From the NCBI RefSeq assembly GCF_013122565.1, contig NZ_CP053258.1: DNA of 64,000 bases; one strand, written 5' to 3'. Position 1 is the first letter of the stretch; each line of letters starts with the position of its first letter. Below are positions 3,152-10,051 of this stretch, in pieces. Origin of the DNA: Escherichia coli. GTDB taxonomy: Bacteria; Pseudomonadota; Gammaproteobacteria; Enterobacterales; Enterobacteriaceae. Under the pieces are notes generated by a model. That model was not told the origin of the DNA. It did no database searches and worked only from the letters and a program-made list of their open reading frames with translations. Position numbers and translations under genes: made by a program.

Positions 3152-4057
3152 TTAACGTGCCACTGGACTAAAAAGCGCAGAATAATCTGTATTGCAGATT
3201 CGCTGTACCGCCGGGTGCTGAATCATCCGCTCAGCAAAAATAGCATGGTACTCTTCCATCACATTCTCGACGCGGCCAATTTCTACGACAGTTTTATCGG
3301 CATAAAAGTCATATGCATAAAGCGTTGGAGCAACGAAGATTGCATTGTGCATCGCACCAAAAGCTTTCATCAACGCGGCATCATCAAACTCACCAAGGAT
3401 TTCTACGTTTAATCCCTGGGAGTTAAACCAGTTAAGCAATTTGCGCCCTAACATTGAACGTCGCCCAGGAATCAAAAGCCGCCGTTCTTCCAGACAAGCC
3501 GGGAACGGTTTTTCCGGTGGTGGATTTGTACACCAGAAACTCACGCCACATTCGCCAATTCTCACGGAGAACAGACCTTCCTGCTGCGTAGAATCTATCG
3601 GACAGTCGGAAATGATCATATCCAGTTTATGCTGACTTAATTGCTCCAGCAGCATTTCGTGGGTGGATTCGAAGCAGCGAAGATGAATCGGCTCGCCTTC
3701 TACCACTGCGGCGTTAAGTACGCTACTGACCAGGCGTTTGGAAAGTGCATCAGCCACGCCAACGTCAAACAATAAATTGGATTCTTTGCGATAGTTCACG
3801 ATATCCAGCATTTCCTGGCTTAAGGTGAACATTTTATCGGCATAGCGATAGACCAGCTCTCCCAGCTCGCTGGGTTCGAGGCCACGTCCCTTGCGCTTAA
3901 ATAATTTGCCTTGCAGGCGCTCTTCCAGAGCCCGGATCTGTCCGGTAATGGTTTGTGGTGTTAAATAAAGCGCCTCCGCTGCGCCAACCACGGAACCTTC
4001 TTTATAAACATGCCAGAAGTAATACAGGTGGTTGTAATTGATATGAGACATGCTCAT
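3152..4057 (-). CDS. nhaR: LysR-family activator of nhaA
   Basis: The ORF-track protein from [22 protein letters not shown].. gives 301 aa, matching E. coli NhaR as I recall it. It lies immediately downstream of nhaA. Confidence 0.97.
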
Positions 4058-4070
4058 TTCTCTCCCTGAT

Positions 4071-4102
4071 AACAATGAAAAGGGAGCCGTTTATGGCTCC
4101 CC
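4071..4102 (-). terminator. nhaA-nhaR intercistronic hairpin / partial terminator
   Basis: On the minus strand, GGGAGCC-ataaac-GGCTCCC is followed by TTTTCATTGTT. The stems are at 4082-4088 and 4095-4101. Confidence 0.55.
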
Positions 4103-4116
4103 GGTAAACCGTCCTG

Positions 4117-5283
4117 TCACACTGATGGACGCAAACGAACGCGTAACCAGCTGTATCCAATTACCGCCGAAGAGATAGAACCGACCAGGATACCGAGTTT
4201 CGCCCAGTTAATCAGTTCTGGATCTACGCTACCAAAGGCCAGGCTGGCAATAAAGATAGACATAGTAAAACCGATACCGCACAGGATCCCCACCGCCATA
4301 ATTTGCTGATAAGTCGTTCCCTCAGGCAGATGCGCCAGTTTCAAACGCAGCGCCAACCAGCAGAACAGACTAATCCCCAGCGGTTTGCCAATCAGCAAGC
4401 CAGCGATGATCCCCAATGGCAGAATGGAGGTCAAGCCATCCAGCGTGACGCCTTGCAGTGAAACGCCAGCATTAGCAAATGCAAACAGTGGTAAAATCAG
4501 ATACGCCACCCACGGGTGCAACACATGCTCCAGTCGCTTCGCTGGAGAACGCCCATGCTTCTCTTTCAAAGGAATAAAGAAGCCGACAATTACCCCCGCC
4601 AGGGTTGCGTGAACCCCCGATTTCAACACTGCAGTCCACAACACTACGCCAACCAGAATATAGACGCCCGTGCGGCGTACACCACACAGATTCAATACCG
4701 CGAGTACCGCAATTGCTACAGCCGCGACGCCAAGAGAGGCCATCGATAAGTCATTAGTGTAGAACAATGCGATGATAATGATGGCCCCAAGATCGTCGAT
4801 AATAGCCAGAGCCATCAAAAAGATCTTCAGCGCTAACGGAACACGACTTCCCAATAGCGCCAGCACACCAAGTGCAAAGGCAATGTCAGTCGCCGCCGGG
4901 ATCGCCCACCCTTCGCGGGTAATCGGATCGGCATAGTTAAAGGCCAGATAGAGTAATGCCGGCACAATCATCCCACCAATAGCGGCGATAACTGGAAATG
5001 CAGCCTGGCGTAAGCTGGCTAGCGATCCTTGCATCAGTTCACGTTTAACTTCCAGACCGACTAACAGGAAAAATACCGCCATCAGCGCGTCATTTATCCA
5101 TAACAGCATGTTTTTGTTGATTTCGAGTGAACCAACCCGGAGCTGAACCGGCGTCTCCAGAAAGTCGTGATACCATCCACTGGTTGCGCCACTGTTGGCC
5201 ATAATCATCGCCAGGATAGCGGCAATGATAAGAATAATGCCTCCCGAGGCATCACTGCTAAAGAATCGATGCAGATGTTTCAC
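4117..5283 (-). CDS. nhaA: Na+/H+ antiporter
   Basis: 388 aa, polytopic membrane protein [22 protein letters not shown].., recognised as E. coli NhaA. Confidence 0.97.
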
Positions 5284-5534
5284 TTTTTATTTCTCTTTCA
5301 GGTGAATAGATCGTTTTTCCTATCTTACCCCGCACGAATCATCGTTAAAATCAGATTATAGTGTAGGAATAATTCGTTTTTTACGAACCATTGAAGGAAT
5401 TGTGCCATCAGCGATGAGATGAGTTTTTGACGGCTGTAAGCGCTAACGGGTGACCCTAAGCCCTGATAATCATAGCTTAAGGTGAGGATTTCTGAGGGAT
5501 TAATTAGGAAAAGTAATAATAAAATCGCACTGTG

Positions 5535-6779
5535 CTATAGCTGTTTATTCCAGAGATGCTTGAAAATATCTAATGTGGAGACAACATTGGCAGGCGACAT
5601 TCGGTTTAATGAGGATAGAAAGGGATGAGACTCCAGGAAGTTGATAAAACGAGTCGCGCTTGCTAACGTCGAATACCGCAATTCATTTGCTTTCTTGTTT
5701 CCTGTAAGGTTACAAACAGCCATTGAATAATCACGGGCGGAAAATGCACGCCAAACATTATTTCTCACGCCACCACTCAAAAACAACCGCGGCGGCGTAT
5801 CATAATGAGTCGTTTTCTCGCCGCGTTCTTTCACAAAGGAAATATGGCACCGGCCTTGATGAATATGCTGTAAATTAGCCATTAGACAACCGCCTAATAT
5901 AAAGCACTCGTGATCAAGGTAGTGTTGAATATTTATAGAATATGCTTCAGTCAGTACTCTAACCAGTTCAAAATGGCGATACGCCGGAAGAACCGGTTTC
6001 ACCAGCATCCCCGGATCGTTTTGATGTAATATCGCCCGACCATAATCAATATCAAATAAAGTATCACGTCGCATAGTAAGTAACTCCTTGCGTTGTACGT
6101 GATGCGCCAGTGTACCTGGAGACAAACGCTCTTCATAACTTGATGCATATTGATAATGCGACTCTACCGCTGATGGAGAATAATTTGTTGAAATAGCGAC
6201 GACTCTACCGCTTTGTTCTTCTGCGGTAACAAGGCTATAAAGATAGTTATTACTACCGTTAAACTTTACGCGAAAAGCGCGGGTAGATAGAGAAATATCA
6301 GAAGCAGAAGAGTATTGGTAACTTTCTTTATAGTTTACTTCCCGGGCTAGTTTCATCAATTCACGGTTAAGCCCTGTGCTATTAAGAAGTAATAATTTAC
6401 GGATATCAGCAAGTGAAGCGCCTTGCTCAATCATCAATGCTAAATGTGTTCTTCGCGGCGTTGTATTTACATGATCCAGAGTTATAAAAGTTCTGGAACA
6501 ATGATGACAATACATTCTCCTCTGCCCCTGAGCTGAATAGCCATACTTTTTCATAGATGTGCTTCCGCAAGCTGGACATTGTGAAACCAACCCTCGCCAT
6601 GAATGATTAACACGATTACGATAAATATTAAGAGATCGTTCAGATATCACAGGAAACAAGTACCCGCATTCCCGACATAAAATATTTTTGCCTTGTACAA
6701 TATAATCCTGACTATTCAACAACCCCAAGTTTCTACATCCTGGTGTTTTGCAACAATCAACATTTACGTTGGTAAACAT
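5535..6779 (-). CDS. Uncharacterised protein: two C4 zinc ribbons plus an HTH resembling IS1 InsA, fused to an unknown domain of about 270 aa
   Basis: The ORF track gives 426 aa from 6815. I prefer the ATG at 6779 (MFTNVNVDCC..), which has an AGGAAG SD 6 nt upstream, whereas 6815 abuts a terminator. Motifs present: CCKTPGC..CRECG and CPACGS..(19)..CHHCSRTF, then an HTH-like GASLADIRKLLLLNSTGLNRELMKL. Confidence 0.7.
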   Translation of the reverse strand: MFTNVNVDCCKTPGCRNLGLLNSQDYIVQGKNILCRECGYLFPVISERSLNIYRNRVNHSWRGLVSQCPACGSTSMKKYGYSAQGQRRMYCHHCSRTFITLDHVNTTPRRTHLALMIEQGASLADIRKLLLLNSTGLNRELMKLAREVNYKESYQYSSASDISLSTRAFRVKFNGSNNYLYSLVTAEEQSGRVVAISTNYSPSAVESHYQYASSYEERLSPGTLAHHVQRKELLTMRRDTLFDIDYGRAILHQNDPGMLVKPVLPAYRHFELVRVLTEAYSINIQHYLDHECFILGGCLMANLQHIHQGRCHISFVKERGEKTTHYDTPPRLFLSGGVRNNVWRAFSARDYSMAVCNLTGNKKANELRYSTLASATRFINFLESHPFLSSLNRMSPANVVSTLDIFKHLWNKQL

Positions 6780-6817
6780 ATCCACTTCCTGCGAATATCC
6801 GGATATTATCGTCATAT

Positions 6818-6860
6818 GTCAAAGAAAAGAACCTGATTCAATGTGTAACATTGAATCAGG
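6818..6860 (-). terminator. Rho-independent terminator after the sulfatase gene
   Basis: Perfect 12-bp stem CCTGATTCAATG (6832-6843) / CATTGAATCAGG (6849-6860) with a 5-nt loop. On the minus strand it is followed by TTCTTTTCTTTGA. Confidence 0.8.
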
Positions 6861-6908
6861 CGGGCATAGCCCTGAAAGGCATACATTACATTTATTATGG
6901 TTACCAGG

Positions 6909-8402
6909 TTAGCCCCAGGTTACCGCTTCCGGTTTATCACCTCTGGCTTTCATTAATGAATCATTATCTATATCGGTTTTATATTTTAAGAACTTACCAT
7001 ACATTTGTTTTTCAATGTCTGGTTTTTTACCTATCTGGTTAATGGTCTCAAAACGATCGGTTTTGAGGTTATATAGATACTTGGGCTTATTGTTACGATC
7101 GATGATCATTTTCCAGTCACCATCACGTATCGCCCATTCGTCGGTTGGATCATCCTGGAATGGCATGTCAATTCCGAATATTAATGGCTTTTCACGTTTT
7201 AGCGCTTTGTTCTCAAGGACAGGAACCAACGATTCGCCATCAAAAGTGCGGTCTGTCGGTAATTTGAAGTTCATCATTTTCGCCAGCGTAGGCATCCAGT
7301 CCAGCCCATAAACTGGTGTATCTGAAACCATTCCCTTTGGAAGATGTTTACCGTATTTAATAATTGCCGGAACACGGATGCCGCCTTCCCAAAGATTATC
7401 CTTGCGACCACGTAATCCATCAGTTTCCCCTGCCAAATTCAGTTCATAAACTTTGCGCGCTTCACGCGTTACTGGTCCGTTATCACTGGTAAAAATAACA
7501 ATGGTGTTATCTTCTTCACCCATCGCTTTGATTTTATCCAGCACTTTTCCAACCTGAGCATCCAGATAACTGATGTTGGCATAATATTCTCCTGGACCAC
7601 GCCAGGGTTTATCCGCCCAGTCGCCATAAAATAAATCAGGATGCTGCTTCTGATATTCGCTCATATATTGTGAGTACATGTCGAGGTATTTTTTGGGCGA
7701 AGCCAGGGGACTGTGCACTTCGGTAAAAGCGACATAAAGGAAGAAAGGCTTACTGTCCTTTTTGTTATCCAACCAGTTGACGACTTCCGAACTGACATAC
7801 TCACCACTCATTTTATCGGAACGTGGTGTGGGTTGCCCGTTACGCAACCAGCCCGTTGGATAGACCATGCCAAAACGGGGACGCTCCTTCGCATTATCCA
7901 GAGTAGCGTCGGTAACAAAACCCGCCGTATTAACCAGTGAGTAATCAAAGCCCATATCTTTTGCCTGCGGCTGATCGGTGCGATCGCCGCCTGCATTCAG
8001 ATGCAGCTTACCCATCATGGCCGTGTCGTACCCTTGCGCTTTGAGTAGATTAGCAATCGTGAGTTCATTACGCCCTAATGCCACATCTTTTCCCGTTGGG
8101 ATCCATGAGCGTATGCCGGTACGAAATGGCATCCGCCCTGTTAATAGTCCCGCCCGTGAAGGAGAACTTAAGGGGGCAGGTGCATAATAGTCAGTAAATT
8201 TGACGCCTTCCTGGGCAAGCCTGTCTATATTGGGCGTTTTAACGATCTGATGTCCATATGTTGCCAAATCACCATAGCCTAAATCATCCGCCATAATGAT
8301 GACTAAATTGGGTTGTTTAGTTTCGGCGGCTACGGCTGGATTAAAAGCATTCCCTGTCCAAACTGCAAGGCCGATCAAACTGGCCATTAATGTTTTCTGC
8401 AT
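6909..8402 (-). CDS. Periplasmic Ser-type sulfatase (497 aa)
   Basis: The start at MQKTLMASLIGLAVWTGNAFNPAVAAE (signal peptide) has an AAGGA SD 6 nt upstream. Sulfatase signatures are present: IIMADDLGYGD and the active-site box PLSSPSRAGLLTGR (Ser where Cys-type enzymes have Cys). Confidence 0.9.
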   Translation of the reverse strand: MQKTLMASLIGLAVWTGNAFNPAVAAETKQPNLVIIMADDLGYGDLATYGHQIVKTPNIDRLAQEGVKFTDYYAPAPLSSPSRAGLLTGRMPFRTGIRSWIPTGKDVALGRNELTIANLLKAQGYDTAMMGKLHLNAGGDRTDQPQAKDMGFDYSLVNTAGFVTDATLDNAKERPRFGMVYPTGWLRNGQPTPRSDKMSGEYVSSEVVNWLDNKKDSKPFFLYVAFTEVHSPLASPKKYLDMYSQYMSEYQKQHPDLFYGDWADKPWRGPGEYYANISYLDAQVGKVLDKIKAMGEEDNTIVIFTSDNGPVTREARKVYELNLAGETDGLRGRKDNLWEGGIRVPAIIKYGKHLPKGMVSDTPVYGLDWMPTLAKMMNFKLPTDRTFDGESLVPVLENKALKREKPLIFGIDMPFQDDPTDEWAIRDGDWKMIIDRNNKPKYLYNLKTDRFETINQIGKKPDIEKQMYGKFLKYKTDIDNDSLMKARGDKPEAVTWG

Positions 8403-8421
8403 AATTATTCCTTGATGAAAA

Positions 8422-9183
8422 TTAGAAATCATAACCAAGCATATAAATCATTTGATCGCCAAAACCATCGTAGCCTAACTTATTATCGAAATAACGCCAC
8501 GTCACACTGGCTTTCCAGCGAGGATAGAACTTCCAGGCAACTGTTAAACCGCCATTTAACCCATTCCGACCAAATTGTTGTTCCGCATAGGCATCATTTC
8601 TGTCCAGTTCTATTTCATTCCAGTTAGATAAAACAAATTTTTCGTCAAATAACGTAAAAGGTAATACTGCTGTCCAACCAACAACATAACCATTCCAGCC
8701 ATTTGTTTGACCATATTTGGCTGAGACGTAGTCTCCAGATTGATTATGTAATCCTATATACGGTTTAAAAAATCCCCACGAACCATTCCAGCCGAGGTAG
8801 CCCAAACCATAAAACATATCAAGATCGTCACCCCATGAGTTATCCCATTGACCATAAATCTTGCCAAAGAAAGTCATATCGGAGTCAAAGAGTCTGACAT
8901 GAGTCATAGCAGAAACGGTATGATTACGCCCCGCTACGGCATGGTTAAGCACATTGCTTTCATAAAATGAGTAAAACTCGGCTTCTTTAAAATTCACACC
9001 AAAGTCCGCAGTCACTTTCCATACTTCACCACGGTGAGTGTTAACGAAGCCACTATTCCAGTCAGCATAACCAGCATTTATTGAGCCAAAGGAACCTTTA
9101 TATTCTAATGAAGAATATGCAGGAAGATGATAGATAATCGTTGTCAGGGCACACGCAATAAGAAGCCGTCTTTTGGCAGACAT
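8422..9183 (-). CDS. Tsx-family (nucleoside-channel-like) outer-membrane beta-barrel, 253 aa
   Basis: Signal peptide present. The sequence is rich in W/Y/G/N, with alternating beta-strand patterns and a C-terminal ..MIYMLGYDF (compare Tsx ..YLVVGYNF). Its stop is 19 nt upstream of the sulfatase start. Confidence 0.75.
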   Translation of the reverse strand: MSAKRRLLIACALTTIIYHLPAYSSLEYKGSFGSINAGYADWNSGFVNTHRGEVWKVTADFGVNFKEAEFYSFYESNVLNHAVAGRNHTVSAMTHVRLFDSDMTFFGKIYGQWDNSWGDDLDMFYGLGYLGWNGSWGFFKPYIGLHNQSGDYVSAKYGQTNGWNGYVVGWTAVLPFTLFDEKFVLSNWNEIELDRNDAYAEQQFGRNGLNGGLTVAWKFYPRWKASVTWRYFDNKLGYDGFGDQMIYMLGYDF

Positions 9184-9692
9184 ATAATATGCTCTCCATT
9201 CATTGTTTTTATGTTTCCATAGAAATCAATACATCAGATAATTCATTTTGATTAAGAACGACCCAGAAAGTATATTTAAAGGTGAATGGCAAAGCGTGAT
9301 GAAGATCGCAGATTACTTTTACACCCGGGTGTGGAGGTATCGTGTTTCAAAAAGTGTGTCTATTTTAAATATCACTCATTGATTTATAGACATTTTTTCC
9401 TTATAAAAAAACACTAAATTCTGTACAAGAATATTTTGTATCTTCTATTACTTTCTCCAGTAATAACTCACCTTTCAGGTATAACTTAAATCTACTTGTT
9501 CATAATCTCAATTTTTGTAAATGAAAAGGCACATAAGAGTTAAAATAAATAATGAATTAAACATTAATTACGCAAAAATGCGAGGCGTCTTCAGGATTAG
9601 AATCGATAAAACAGAATGGGTTAAAGAGAGCGATATAATAGCGGCGGGTGCTTGAGGCTGTCTGTCTCAGGCATTAGCTGAACGGCAGATAG

Positions 9693-9747
9693 AGAAAAGC
9701 CCCGAGTGATATTTTACTATCAACCCGAGGCCTCCTATATGCAGAAC
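9693..9747 (-). ncRNA. sokC: Sok-type antisense RNA of the hokC locus
   Basis: Placed by transferring the K-12 sokC position relative to mokC/hokC, from memory. It overlaps the mokC start in antisense. The ends are not verifiable from sequence alone. Confidence 0.45.
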
Positions 9748-9948
9748 ACATGTAGAGTGCCTCTTACTGACCGTAAGGTCAAGGAGAAGAGAGCAATGAA
9801 GCAGCATAAGGCGATGATTGTCGCCCTCATCGTCATCTGTATCACCGCCGTAGTGGCGGCGCTGGTAACGAGAAAAGACCTCTGTGAGGTTCACATCCGA
9901 ACTGGCCAGACGGAGGTTGCTGTTTTCACGGCTTACGAATCCGAGTAA
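9739..9948 (+). CDS. mokC: Overlapping regulatory reading frame of hokC
   Basis: The in-frame upstream ATG gives MQNTCRVPLTDRKVKEKRA- followed by HokC, as in K-12 MokC (K-12 has MLNTC..). Confidence 0.6.
   Translation: MQNTCRVPLTDRKVKEKRAMKQHKAMIVALIVICITAVVAALVTRKDLCEVHIRTGQTEVAVFTAYESE
9796..9948 (+). CDS. hokC: Type I toxin HokC (Gef), 50 aa
   Basis: MKQHKAMIVALIVICITAVVAALVTRKDLCEVHIRTGQTEVAVFTAYESE matches HokC as I recall it. An AAGGAGAAG SD lies upstream. Confidence 0.93.
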   Translation: MKQHKAMIVALIVICITAVVAALVTRKDLCEVHIRTGQTEVAVFTAYESE

Positions 9949-10022
9949 GAGCAACGGCGGGGAGTGATCCCCGCCACTTTACAGGTGCTCGCATATCTTC
10001 AACGCACCCTATTTTTACCCAG

Positions 10023-10044
10023 GCCTGCCCACGAGCAGGCTTTT
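10023..10044 (+). terminator. Terminator hairpin at the 3' end of the hok mRNA (shared convergent region with dnaJ)
   Basis: GCCTGC (10023-10028) - 6-nt loop - GCAGGC (10035-10040), followed by TTTT on the plus strand. Confidence 0.5.
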
Positions 10045-10051
10045 GGGGAGG

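Follow-up and report, generated by a model that had tools for sequence, protein, structure and literature searches.

The DNA analysed here (hereafter the window) is a 64,000-nt stretch of the Escherichia coli chromosome (contig NZ_CP053258.1), in which nhaR (3152-4075) and nhaA (4117-5283) are followed by a minus-strand open reading frame (ORF) at 5535-6815 and then, in order, by genes for a sulfatase and a Tsx-family/OmpK-like channel, the mokC/hokC locus and dnaJ. The product of this ORF is very probably a domesticated transposase of the IS1/IS1595 type. From gene order and upstream motifs, we also favour, with clearly less assurance, the view that this domesticated transposase acts as a transcription regulator of the neighbouring module. 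The protein appears to be immobile and catalytically dead, and to have kept the ancestral DNA-binding head, a zinc ribbon followed by a helix-turn-helix (HTH) domain, with a second Cys4 ribbon in front. It appears to have kept the RNase H-like core as well, with a threonine and a proline at the positions expected for the catalytic aspartates. It would serve as a sequence-specific regulator of the Tsx-like channel/sulfatase module, and the role of its family as a whole would be the control of nucleoside and nucleotide scavenging.

Architecture and conservation of the protein

The ORF reported in an earlier note on this DNA is intact and uninterrupted on the minus strand (426 aa for the long form in the ORF list), but the start assumed there, an ATG at 6815, is probably unused. 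Because the PGAP annotation of a near-identical genome and all 48 aligned orthologues start at M13 of the long form (MF..NVD.CKT), and a ribosome-binding site (AGGAAG) is located 5 nt 5' of M13, the coding sequence (CDS) most likely spans 5535-6779 and encodes 414 aa. Residue numbers refer to the 414-aa form throughout, and the window features given below all lie on the minus strand.

The head begins with a Cys4 zinc-ribbon-like module at residues 8-45 (6645-6758), for which the structural model shows beta hairpins at residues 26-43. Its four cysteines, C10, C15, C35 and C38, are the cluster that the earlier note had seen ahead of an InsA-like ribbon, and they show no variation within the enterobacterial clade and are at least 90% conserved in the superfamily. 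The InsA-like ribbon itself, of the IS1/IS1595 type, occupies residues 66-100 (6480-6584) and carries C68, C71, C91 and C94; among 45 sequences, C68, C91 and C94 are invariant and C71 is at least 90% conserved. Its CPACG...CHHCSRTF segment (residues 68-97) matches the NCBIfam model NF050000 (IS1_IS1595_Zn) with 37.9 bits and an E-value of 1.9e-9 (cutoff 28), and this second ribbon also matches IS256_N_4Cys with 32.6 bits (cutoff 27). A three-helix HTH DNA-binding domain follows at residues 106-153 (6321-6464). Residues 68-151 align with positions 1-86 of the 199 positions of the IS1 transposase model NF033558 (E 1.3e-7), a match confined to the head that, at 31.7 bits, does not reach the full-length cutoff of 100 bits. 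This IS1 model is matched by 22 of 29 superfamily members, and V. taketomensis P0102 covers IS1 profile positions 1-130. In a profile-profile comparison by hhalign, the family aligns with IS1 InsAB' across the ribbon and the HTH with 94% probability and an E-value of 1.1e-7. A Pfam scan of the protein gave nothing significant, with sub-threshold zinc-ribbon noise only. Because the NF050000, IS1 model and hhalign scores are significant, the likeness of the head to IS1 InsA, pointed out in the earlier note, is real homology at the level of sequence, well beyond chance.

The remainder of the protein, residues 160-414 (5538-6302), had been regarded as an unknown body. In an AlphaFold2 model built from 45 diverse family members, it is an RNase H-like core of the DDE-transposase (Asp-Asp-Glu) type, and the model has a mean predicted local distance difference test (pLDDT) of 91.8 and a predicted template modelling score (pTM) of 0.92. 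A first model from close orthologues only was poor (pLDDT 65.8) and was replaced by the one from the diverse alignment. The modelled elements are the two ribbons, the three-helix HTH (108-153 in the model), strands b1 (161-173), b2 (178-187) and b3 (193-198), a helix (224-237), b4 (258-260), a helix (263-280), b5 (283-288), a helix (292-307), a four-strand beta insertion (311-357) and a C-terminal helical bundle. The order b1-b2-b3-a1-b4-a2-b5-a expected of the RNase H-like/DDE fold is present, and on this model the body is an RNase H-like transposase/integrase-type core. Its nearest structural matches are DDE transposases and integrases, and the nearest solved structure is the IS256/Mutator-family transposase ISCth4 (PDB 6xg8); a Foldseek search against PDB gave weak matches of low TM-score only, and the family profile has no significant match among the sequences of solved structures.

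Searches with the sequence of the body lead back to the family itself. A profile of residues 150-414 run against 1.84 billion representatives retrieves 71 proteins, the retrieved full-length ones all have the same architecture, and no insertion sequence (IS) transposase is among the matches. Pfam reports no transposase domain (DDE_Tnp_IS1) in the protein, and the body lies outside every Pfam family. It shows no significant similarity to IS1 InsB at the sequence level, and hhalign could not align it to an IS1 profile that is shallow, the homologue search having yielded almost only near-identical IS1 copies. Two placements proposed from the letters alone, LSTRAF at the place of IS1 EMDEQW and NYLYSLVTAEE..VVAISTNY at the next InsB strands, fit the modelled strands b1, b2 and b3. 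Sequence statistics confirm neither of them, since the confidence of hhalign fades after the HTH.

In the RNase H-like fold, the catalytic aspartates lie in b1 and just after b4, and the glutamate lies on the helix after b5. Judged by fold topology and conservation rather than by residue-level superposition, the first aspartate place is taken by T166 (threonine or serine in 44 of 45 relatives), the second by K261-P262 (P262 in all 45), and the glutamate place by E291 (E in 41 and D in 4). Because D289 and E291 are the only body columns in which an acid is conserved among these relatives, an intact DDE triad cannot be present. A cryptic triad, D161-D245-E271, was considered and rejected, since none of the three is conserved in the superfamily and D161 stands at the very start of b1. 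Other positions of the body are strongly kept: H269 is invariant, H286 is found in 43 of the 45 relatives, E291 is always E or D, and Y211, R238, P262, H269, F270 and W343 are invariant across the wider family.

The gene also lacks the hallmarks of a mobile element, as the earlier note had supposed from the window alone. Of 5426 complete E. coli genomes, 1279 carry it, each in exactly one copy, and no plasmid does, so that the island occurs in about a quarter of E. coli. PLSDB matches that might suggest plasmid carriage (NZ_CP134663.1, NZ_CP141089.1, CP099174.1 and NZ_CP092913.1) were rejected, because they look like mislabelled chromosomal sequence: they have the size of a chromosome (0.8-4.9 Mb) or, in the case of the 80-kb NZ_CP092913.1, contain the chromosomal housekeeping genes metF, metL, metB, metJ and katG. 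No terminal inverted repeats flank the gene in the window, and none is found at the module borders in the window, L005, L010 or L046. The gene is a single ORF with no insA/insB split and programmed -1 frameshift, versus the frameshifted IS1 CDS in L008. Two copies in one Psychromonas genome are 58-61% identical and are therefore old paralogues, not IS copies. The only similarity between module borders is in locus L047, where both (2230-2460 and 8220-8420) carry a GC-rich palindromic element (CCCTCTCCC..GGGAGAGGG) that resembles a REP-type intergenic repeat, not an IS end.

The E. coli gene falls into two allele classes, one of 230 genomes at 95-99% identity and one of 1049 genomes at about 81%. 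The ratio of nonsynonymous to synonymous substitution rates (dN/dS) between the classes is 0.093 (head 0.11, body 0.08), and that between Klebsiella and Kluyvera is 0.12. The whole protein is under purifying selection, and because dN/dS is 0.09 and dS is saturated between genera, the pattern is one of long-term vertical maintenance, not IS turnover. The two classes of the gene, and of the island, share about 81% nucleotide and 83% protein identity with a dS of about 1.05, and the window allele belongs to the rarer class. Lescat et al. (PMC4182557) report a sharp difference in the nhaAR operon between B2 and non-B2 strains, and the deep split of the adjacent island echoes that division. The head homology, the RNase H-like body and the dead triad agree with the earlier suggestion of a protein derived from a transposase that is not an active IS.

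Gene contexts and candidate operator sites

The protein had been called an orphan, a description that does not hold, since it has 55 orthologue clusters in Enterobacteriaceae at 50-96% identity (named sources include Escherichia, Salmonella, Klebsiella, Citrobacter and Kluyvera) and belongs to a wider superfamily. The Salmonella LT2 homologue is probably STM0037. Co-occurrence with the sulfatase, which the earlier note had proposed as a check, is borne out: all nine enterobacterial contexts read have a Tsx-like channel gene and a sulfatase gene next to the gene, and the module is found at four different sites on the chromosome (dnaJ-nhaA, mscK-priC, near dld and near hrpA). Between the sulfatase and the gene there is often a gene for a radical-SAM enzyme that matures sulfatases anaerobically, and a 5'-nucleotidase and aryl-sulfotransferases are often encoded near the module.

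At 18-33% identity and with lengths of 378-478 aa, the distant members of the family mostly have the double-ribbon/HTH/body plan; two of them lack the first Cys cluster. Databases name the relatives "cytoplasmic protein", "hypothetical" or "IS1 family transposase", and the NCBI annotation covers the N-terminal domain only. Scanning genomes turned up 30 loci, distributed over Psychromonas, Agarivorans, Motilimonas, Gynuella, Thaumasiovibrio and Gilliamella, and in 23 of them deoD, deoB, deoC, deoA or TAL lies upstream on the opposite strand; three of the seven loci without deo or TAL neighbours are contigs of only 2-2.5 kb. In Motilimonas, a Tsx-like channel gene and add are also found downstream, and in Agarivorans nupC lies in between. 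The member P0088 is divergent to nupC-udp. The member P0099 is flanked by a TAL-add-deoCABD operon and a Bmp-type nucleoside ABC transporter (locus L012), and among the genes called over these 17 kb no other belongs to a regulator-type (HTH) Pfam family. The Thaumasiovibrio copy stands beside genes for Endonuclease I and an LTD-domain protein, and one Psychromonas copy is near an SNase homologue.

A second paralogue group, 23-25% identical and about 375 aa long, is represented in K. pneumoniae (L048), Salmonella (L050) and E. coli KE47 (L051). The cluster of the K. pneumoniae paralogue alone holds 2053 member sequences. In K. pneumoniae and Salmonella the paralogue is divergent to a UDP-sugar hydrolase/5'-nucleotidase gene, between metF and metL; the E. 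coli KE47 record carries no annotation, and the region upstream of its paralogue is conserved as in the other two. The common theme of these neighbourhoods is the scavenging of nucleic-acid breakdown products. The family is gammaproteobacterial, spans several orders and is previously undescribed: no work on the protein or its family came up in literature searches covering STM0035-37, IS1 domestication, OmpK with sulfatase and nhaA, cerebroside sulfatase, and nucleoside regulators derived from transposases. Lescat et al. 2014 (PMC4182557) mention the region only as "putative cerebroside sulfatase" genes beside nhaAR.

Conserved upstream sites occur in the deo-type, the enterobacterial channel-sulfatase and the 5'-nucleotidase-type loci. 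Of 28 deo-type loci, 26 have an imperfect 19-bp palindrome, GTTAACAAAATATGTTGTT, 35-220 nt 5' of the gene, and further copies precede nupC and TAL. To avoid circularity, a position weight matrix (PWM) was trained on the Psychromonas loci alone, and among 12 loci of other genera its top match within the whole 17-19 kb locus, both strands considered, lies directly 5' of the gene in seven. On the enterobacterial loci this deo-type PWM gives no useful score. Its best match in the 64-kb window, TTTAACCCATTCTGTTTTA at 9607-9625 (13.5 bits), falls inside the channel-sulfatase upstream region; it may be a chance match, the next ones scoring 13.0 and 12.9 bits, and it was not used.

The enterobacterial channel-sulfatase promoter, aligned over eight orthologous promoters, has two blocks in common with each of the two promoters in the divergent, Salmonella-type layout. 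The first, block 1, reads GCAACAT-N4-TGACAC, and about 29 nt downstream of it follows block 2, TGTGA-N8-TCACA. A naive k-mer conservation search over the eight promoters gave nothing above shuffles, and the blocks are visible only in the alignments. Block 2 is kept in E. coli, where it reads TCTGCGATCTTCATCACG at 9295-9312. By count, its centre lies about 41 bp 5' of a TATACT -10 candidate (9269-9274), a spacing that would correspond to class II activator geometry. A block-1-like element, AGACACACTTTTTGAAACAC at 9342-9361, is a candidate operator and a degenerate copy of GCAACAT-N4-TGACAC. The block 1 PWM, trained on the divergent loci, has its top match in the Tsx promoter in all three operon-type loci outside E. 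coli (Klebsiella, L009 and Kluyvera). The 5'-nucleotidase-type loci carry a conserved CAACGA-N11-TCGTTG repeat in a short intergenic region, next to a canonical CRP-like TGTGA-N6-TCACA. A yAAC/GTTr core (CAAC/GTTG) is common to all three site types, and CCAACTTAyTGAT occurs in the genuine IS1 ends of L008; this CAAC likeness is too short for statistics and is a lead only.

Within the module itself, the channel gene comes first (8422-9183; Pfam Channel_Tsx 52.6 bits, named as such by PGAP) and is followed by the sulfatase gene, at 6909-8402 in the PGAP coordinates (long form to 8438), which scores 199 bits with Pfam Sulfatase. An intrinsic-terminator-like hairpin with a 14-bp stem and a T run (6831-6861) lies between the sulfatase stop and the transposase-derived gene, and a promoter-like site, TTGACA-17-GATATT (6794-6822), lies directly 5' of the gene and is the best sigma-70-type match in 5200-9800 (10 of 12 positions). 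Because the hairpin is followed by this promoter-like site, the E. coli gene probably has a transcript of its own. The distance from the maturase gene to the start of the gene is 21-27 nt in Klebsiella, Salmonella, Citrobacter, Kluyvera and L009.

At residue 79 of the sulfatase (497-aa form), the formylglycine motif is SSPSR, with serine, in 4 of 4 E. coli alleles (the window, L001, L008 and L052), and it is CSPSR, with cysteine, in Salmonella, Klebsiella, Citrobacter, Kluyvera, L009, L010 and L047. The radical-SAM maturase gene is located between the sulfatase and the transposase-derived gene in Salmonella, Klebsiella, Citrobacter, Kluyvera and L009, and is missing in E. coli. The Ser-type sulfatase of E. 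coli, having no local maturase, may be inactive or may rely on AslB/YdeM-type enzymes encoded elsewhere. The extended module of Salmonella, Citrobacter and Kluyvera (L002, L045 and L046) contains one or two aryl-sulfate sulfotransferase genes (Arylsulfotran_N and Arylsulfotrans), and that of Salmonella and Citrobacter also contains a periplasmic-type 5'-nucleotidase. A Tsx channel together with a 5'-nucleotidase, a sulfatase and a sulfotransferase may point to a sulfated nucleoside/nucleotide or sulfate-ester substrate that has gone unrecognised. The G+C content is 39-45% across the 5-10 kb stretch of the window versus about 50-55% in the surroundings. The interval between the channel gene and dnaJ (9184-10051 in the window) varies among strains: it holds mokC/hokC only in this window, an IS421 (IS4-like) copy between mokC and dnaJ in L001, and an IS1 between the channel gene and mokC in L008.

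Regulator, enzyme or transposase

The regulator role, which the earlier note had raised for the island, is now backed by the superfamily-wide link to nucleoside and nucleotide genes and by the conserved upstream motifs. The predicted targets are block 1 and/or the TGTGA-N8-TCACA palindrome at about -41 in the module promoter. The former catalytic domain would provide oligomerisation and perhaps the sensing of a small molecule. We infer the direction of regulation, the binding to these motifs and the ligand. Several points weigh against this role. Block 2 resembles a CRP site, although its spacer is 8 bp, and could be a CRP site of the 8-bp-spacer class. The block 1 PWM misses the E. coli copy, which is degenerate. 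The conserved motifs could belong to another regulator, with the gene merely in its regulon. In addition, the module of E. coli lacks the dedicated maturase and has serine for cysteine at the formylglycine position of the sulfatase, and it may therefore have decayed in part or been rewired.

A more specific version of the regulator reading is possible, but we put it forward only tentatively: the family would be a new bacterial one-component regulator family made from a dead DDE transposase. The IS1-type head would still read an operator descended from a transposon end, as the CAAC core in IS1 ends, block 1, the deo-type sites and the 5'-nucleotidase-type sites might suggest, and a pocket at the former active site (T166, P262, H269, H286, E291 and W343) would sense a signal derived from nucleosides or nucleotides. 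In Psychromonas, Agarivorans, Motilimonas and Gilliamella, the role that CytR and DeoR have in E. coli would fall to this family, and one branch in Enterobacteriaceae would have been recruited to the Tsx-channel/5'-nucleotidase/sulfatase module, which would imply an unrecognised sulfated nucleoside or nucleotide in the gut.

The strongest competitor, which we consider unlikely, is an enzyme or accessory factor that helps to scavenge nucleotides or sulfate esters, with an RNase H-like domain that carries a non-DDE site and a head that binds nucleic acid substrates. The conservation of H269, H286 and E291 speaks for such an enzyme, as these residues could form a metal site with some catalytic use. 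So does gene order: in most enterobacterial loci the gene is last or next to last in the sulfatase operon rather than divergent, and its place in Salmonella, Klebsiella, Citrobacter and Kluyvera, 3'-terminal in the sulfatase-maturase operon, is typical of pathway genes, which fits an accessory enzyme too. Both observations count against a regulator. However, the protein has no apparent signal peptide, whereas the neighbouring channel is an outer-membrane protein, and the head is a sequence-specific transposase DNA-binding module. The divergent layout and the short intergenic regions with palindromic sites are the classic arrangement of a regulator, and the 17-kb nucleoside supercluster of L012 has no other called gene with a regulator-type Pfam family.

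It is improbable that the protein is an InsA-like repressor that damps IS1 transposition through IS1-type ends, or a general DNA-binding protein unrelated to its neighbours. The head is homologous to InsA, and the IS1 ends of L008 and block 1 have CAAC...TGA in common, but this likeness is short and not statistically testable, the family is kept with nucleoside or sulfatase genes in genera where no IS1 was seen in this analysis, and it is these genomic partners, not IS1, that co-vary with the family. Scarcely credible is an active or recently inactivated transposase, with the ORF alone an IS or the channel-sulfatase module a cargo-carrying transposon: the four chromosomal sites (which such a transposon would explain), the low G+C content and the "IS1 family transposase" labels of several databases would favour it, but the lack of border inverted repeats, on which the module as a transposon was rejected, the single copy in each of 1279 genomes, the T and P at the catalytic Asp positions across a family spanning several orders, the dN/dS of 0.09 with saturated dS and the 31.7 bits against the cutoff of 100 of the IS1 equivalog model all argue against it.

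If the protein is a regulator, it would add a family of DNA-binding regulators with an RNase H-like effector domain, and it would correct the widespread "IS1 family transposase" labels in databases. It would also name a candidate for the missing local regulator of the deo/nupC genes in the sampled Psychromonas, Agarivorans, Motilimonas and Gilliamella lineages, and give a handle on the uncharacterised sulfatase island beside nhaAR. The neighbourhoods supply candidate operators and target genes that can be tested.

Comparison with known systems

The protein shares with IS1 InsA and InsAB' a ribbon of equal Cys spacing followed by an HTH. InsA is a DNA-binding repressor that recognises the IS1 ends, and for that reason the head is already suited to a regulator role. 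Unlike InsA/InsAB', however, the protein is one 414-aa ORF without a frameshift and has an extra N-terminal Cys4 ribbon, its body contains a beta insertion, is double InsB in size and does not match it significantly in sequence, and the gene has no DDE triad, no inverted repeats and a single copy. Compared with ISCth4 (PDB 6xg8) and the zinc-binding variants of IS1249 and IS256, identity is about 7-9% and the catalytic residues are absent from the E. coli protein; the matches of the IS1249 and IS256 models end after its head.

Domestication of transposases into transcription factors is a major theme in eukaryotes, where FHY3/FAR1 (from Mutator), THAP and ZBED are examples, and TldR, derived from TnpB, is a bacterial one; for DDE transposases in bacteria it is barely documented. 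By analogy, the protein would have taken the same route as these factors, with the DNA-binding domain kept, catalysis lost and the locus fixed under purifying selection. Exaptation of a transposase as a regulator is a known kind of event, of which this would be a new bacterial variant; to our knowledge, there is no described bacterial case of a DDE-type IS transposase that became a metabolic one-component-like regulator.

With CytR (LacI-type) and DeoR (DeoR-type), the E. coli repressors of nucleoside catabolism, the family has no homology, and its motifs ATyAAC-N7-GTTrAT and GCAACAT-N4-TGACAC differ from the TGCAA/GTTGCATT CytR boxes (PMC3454398). The likeness to these repressors would be a functional analogy only, resting on deo, nupC, tsx and udp-type genes with CRP-like sites nearby.

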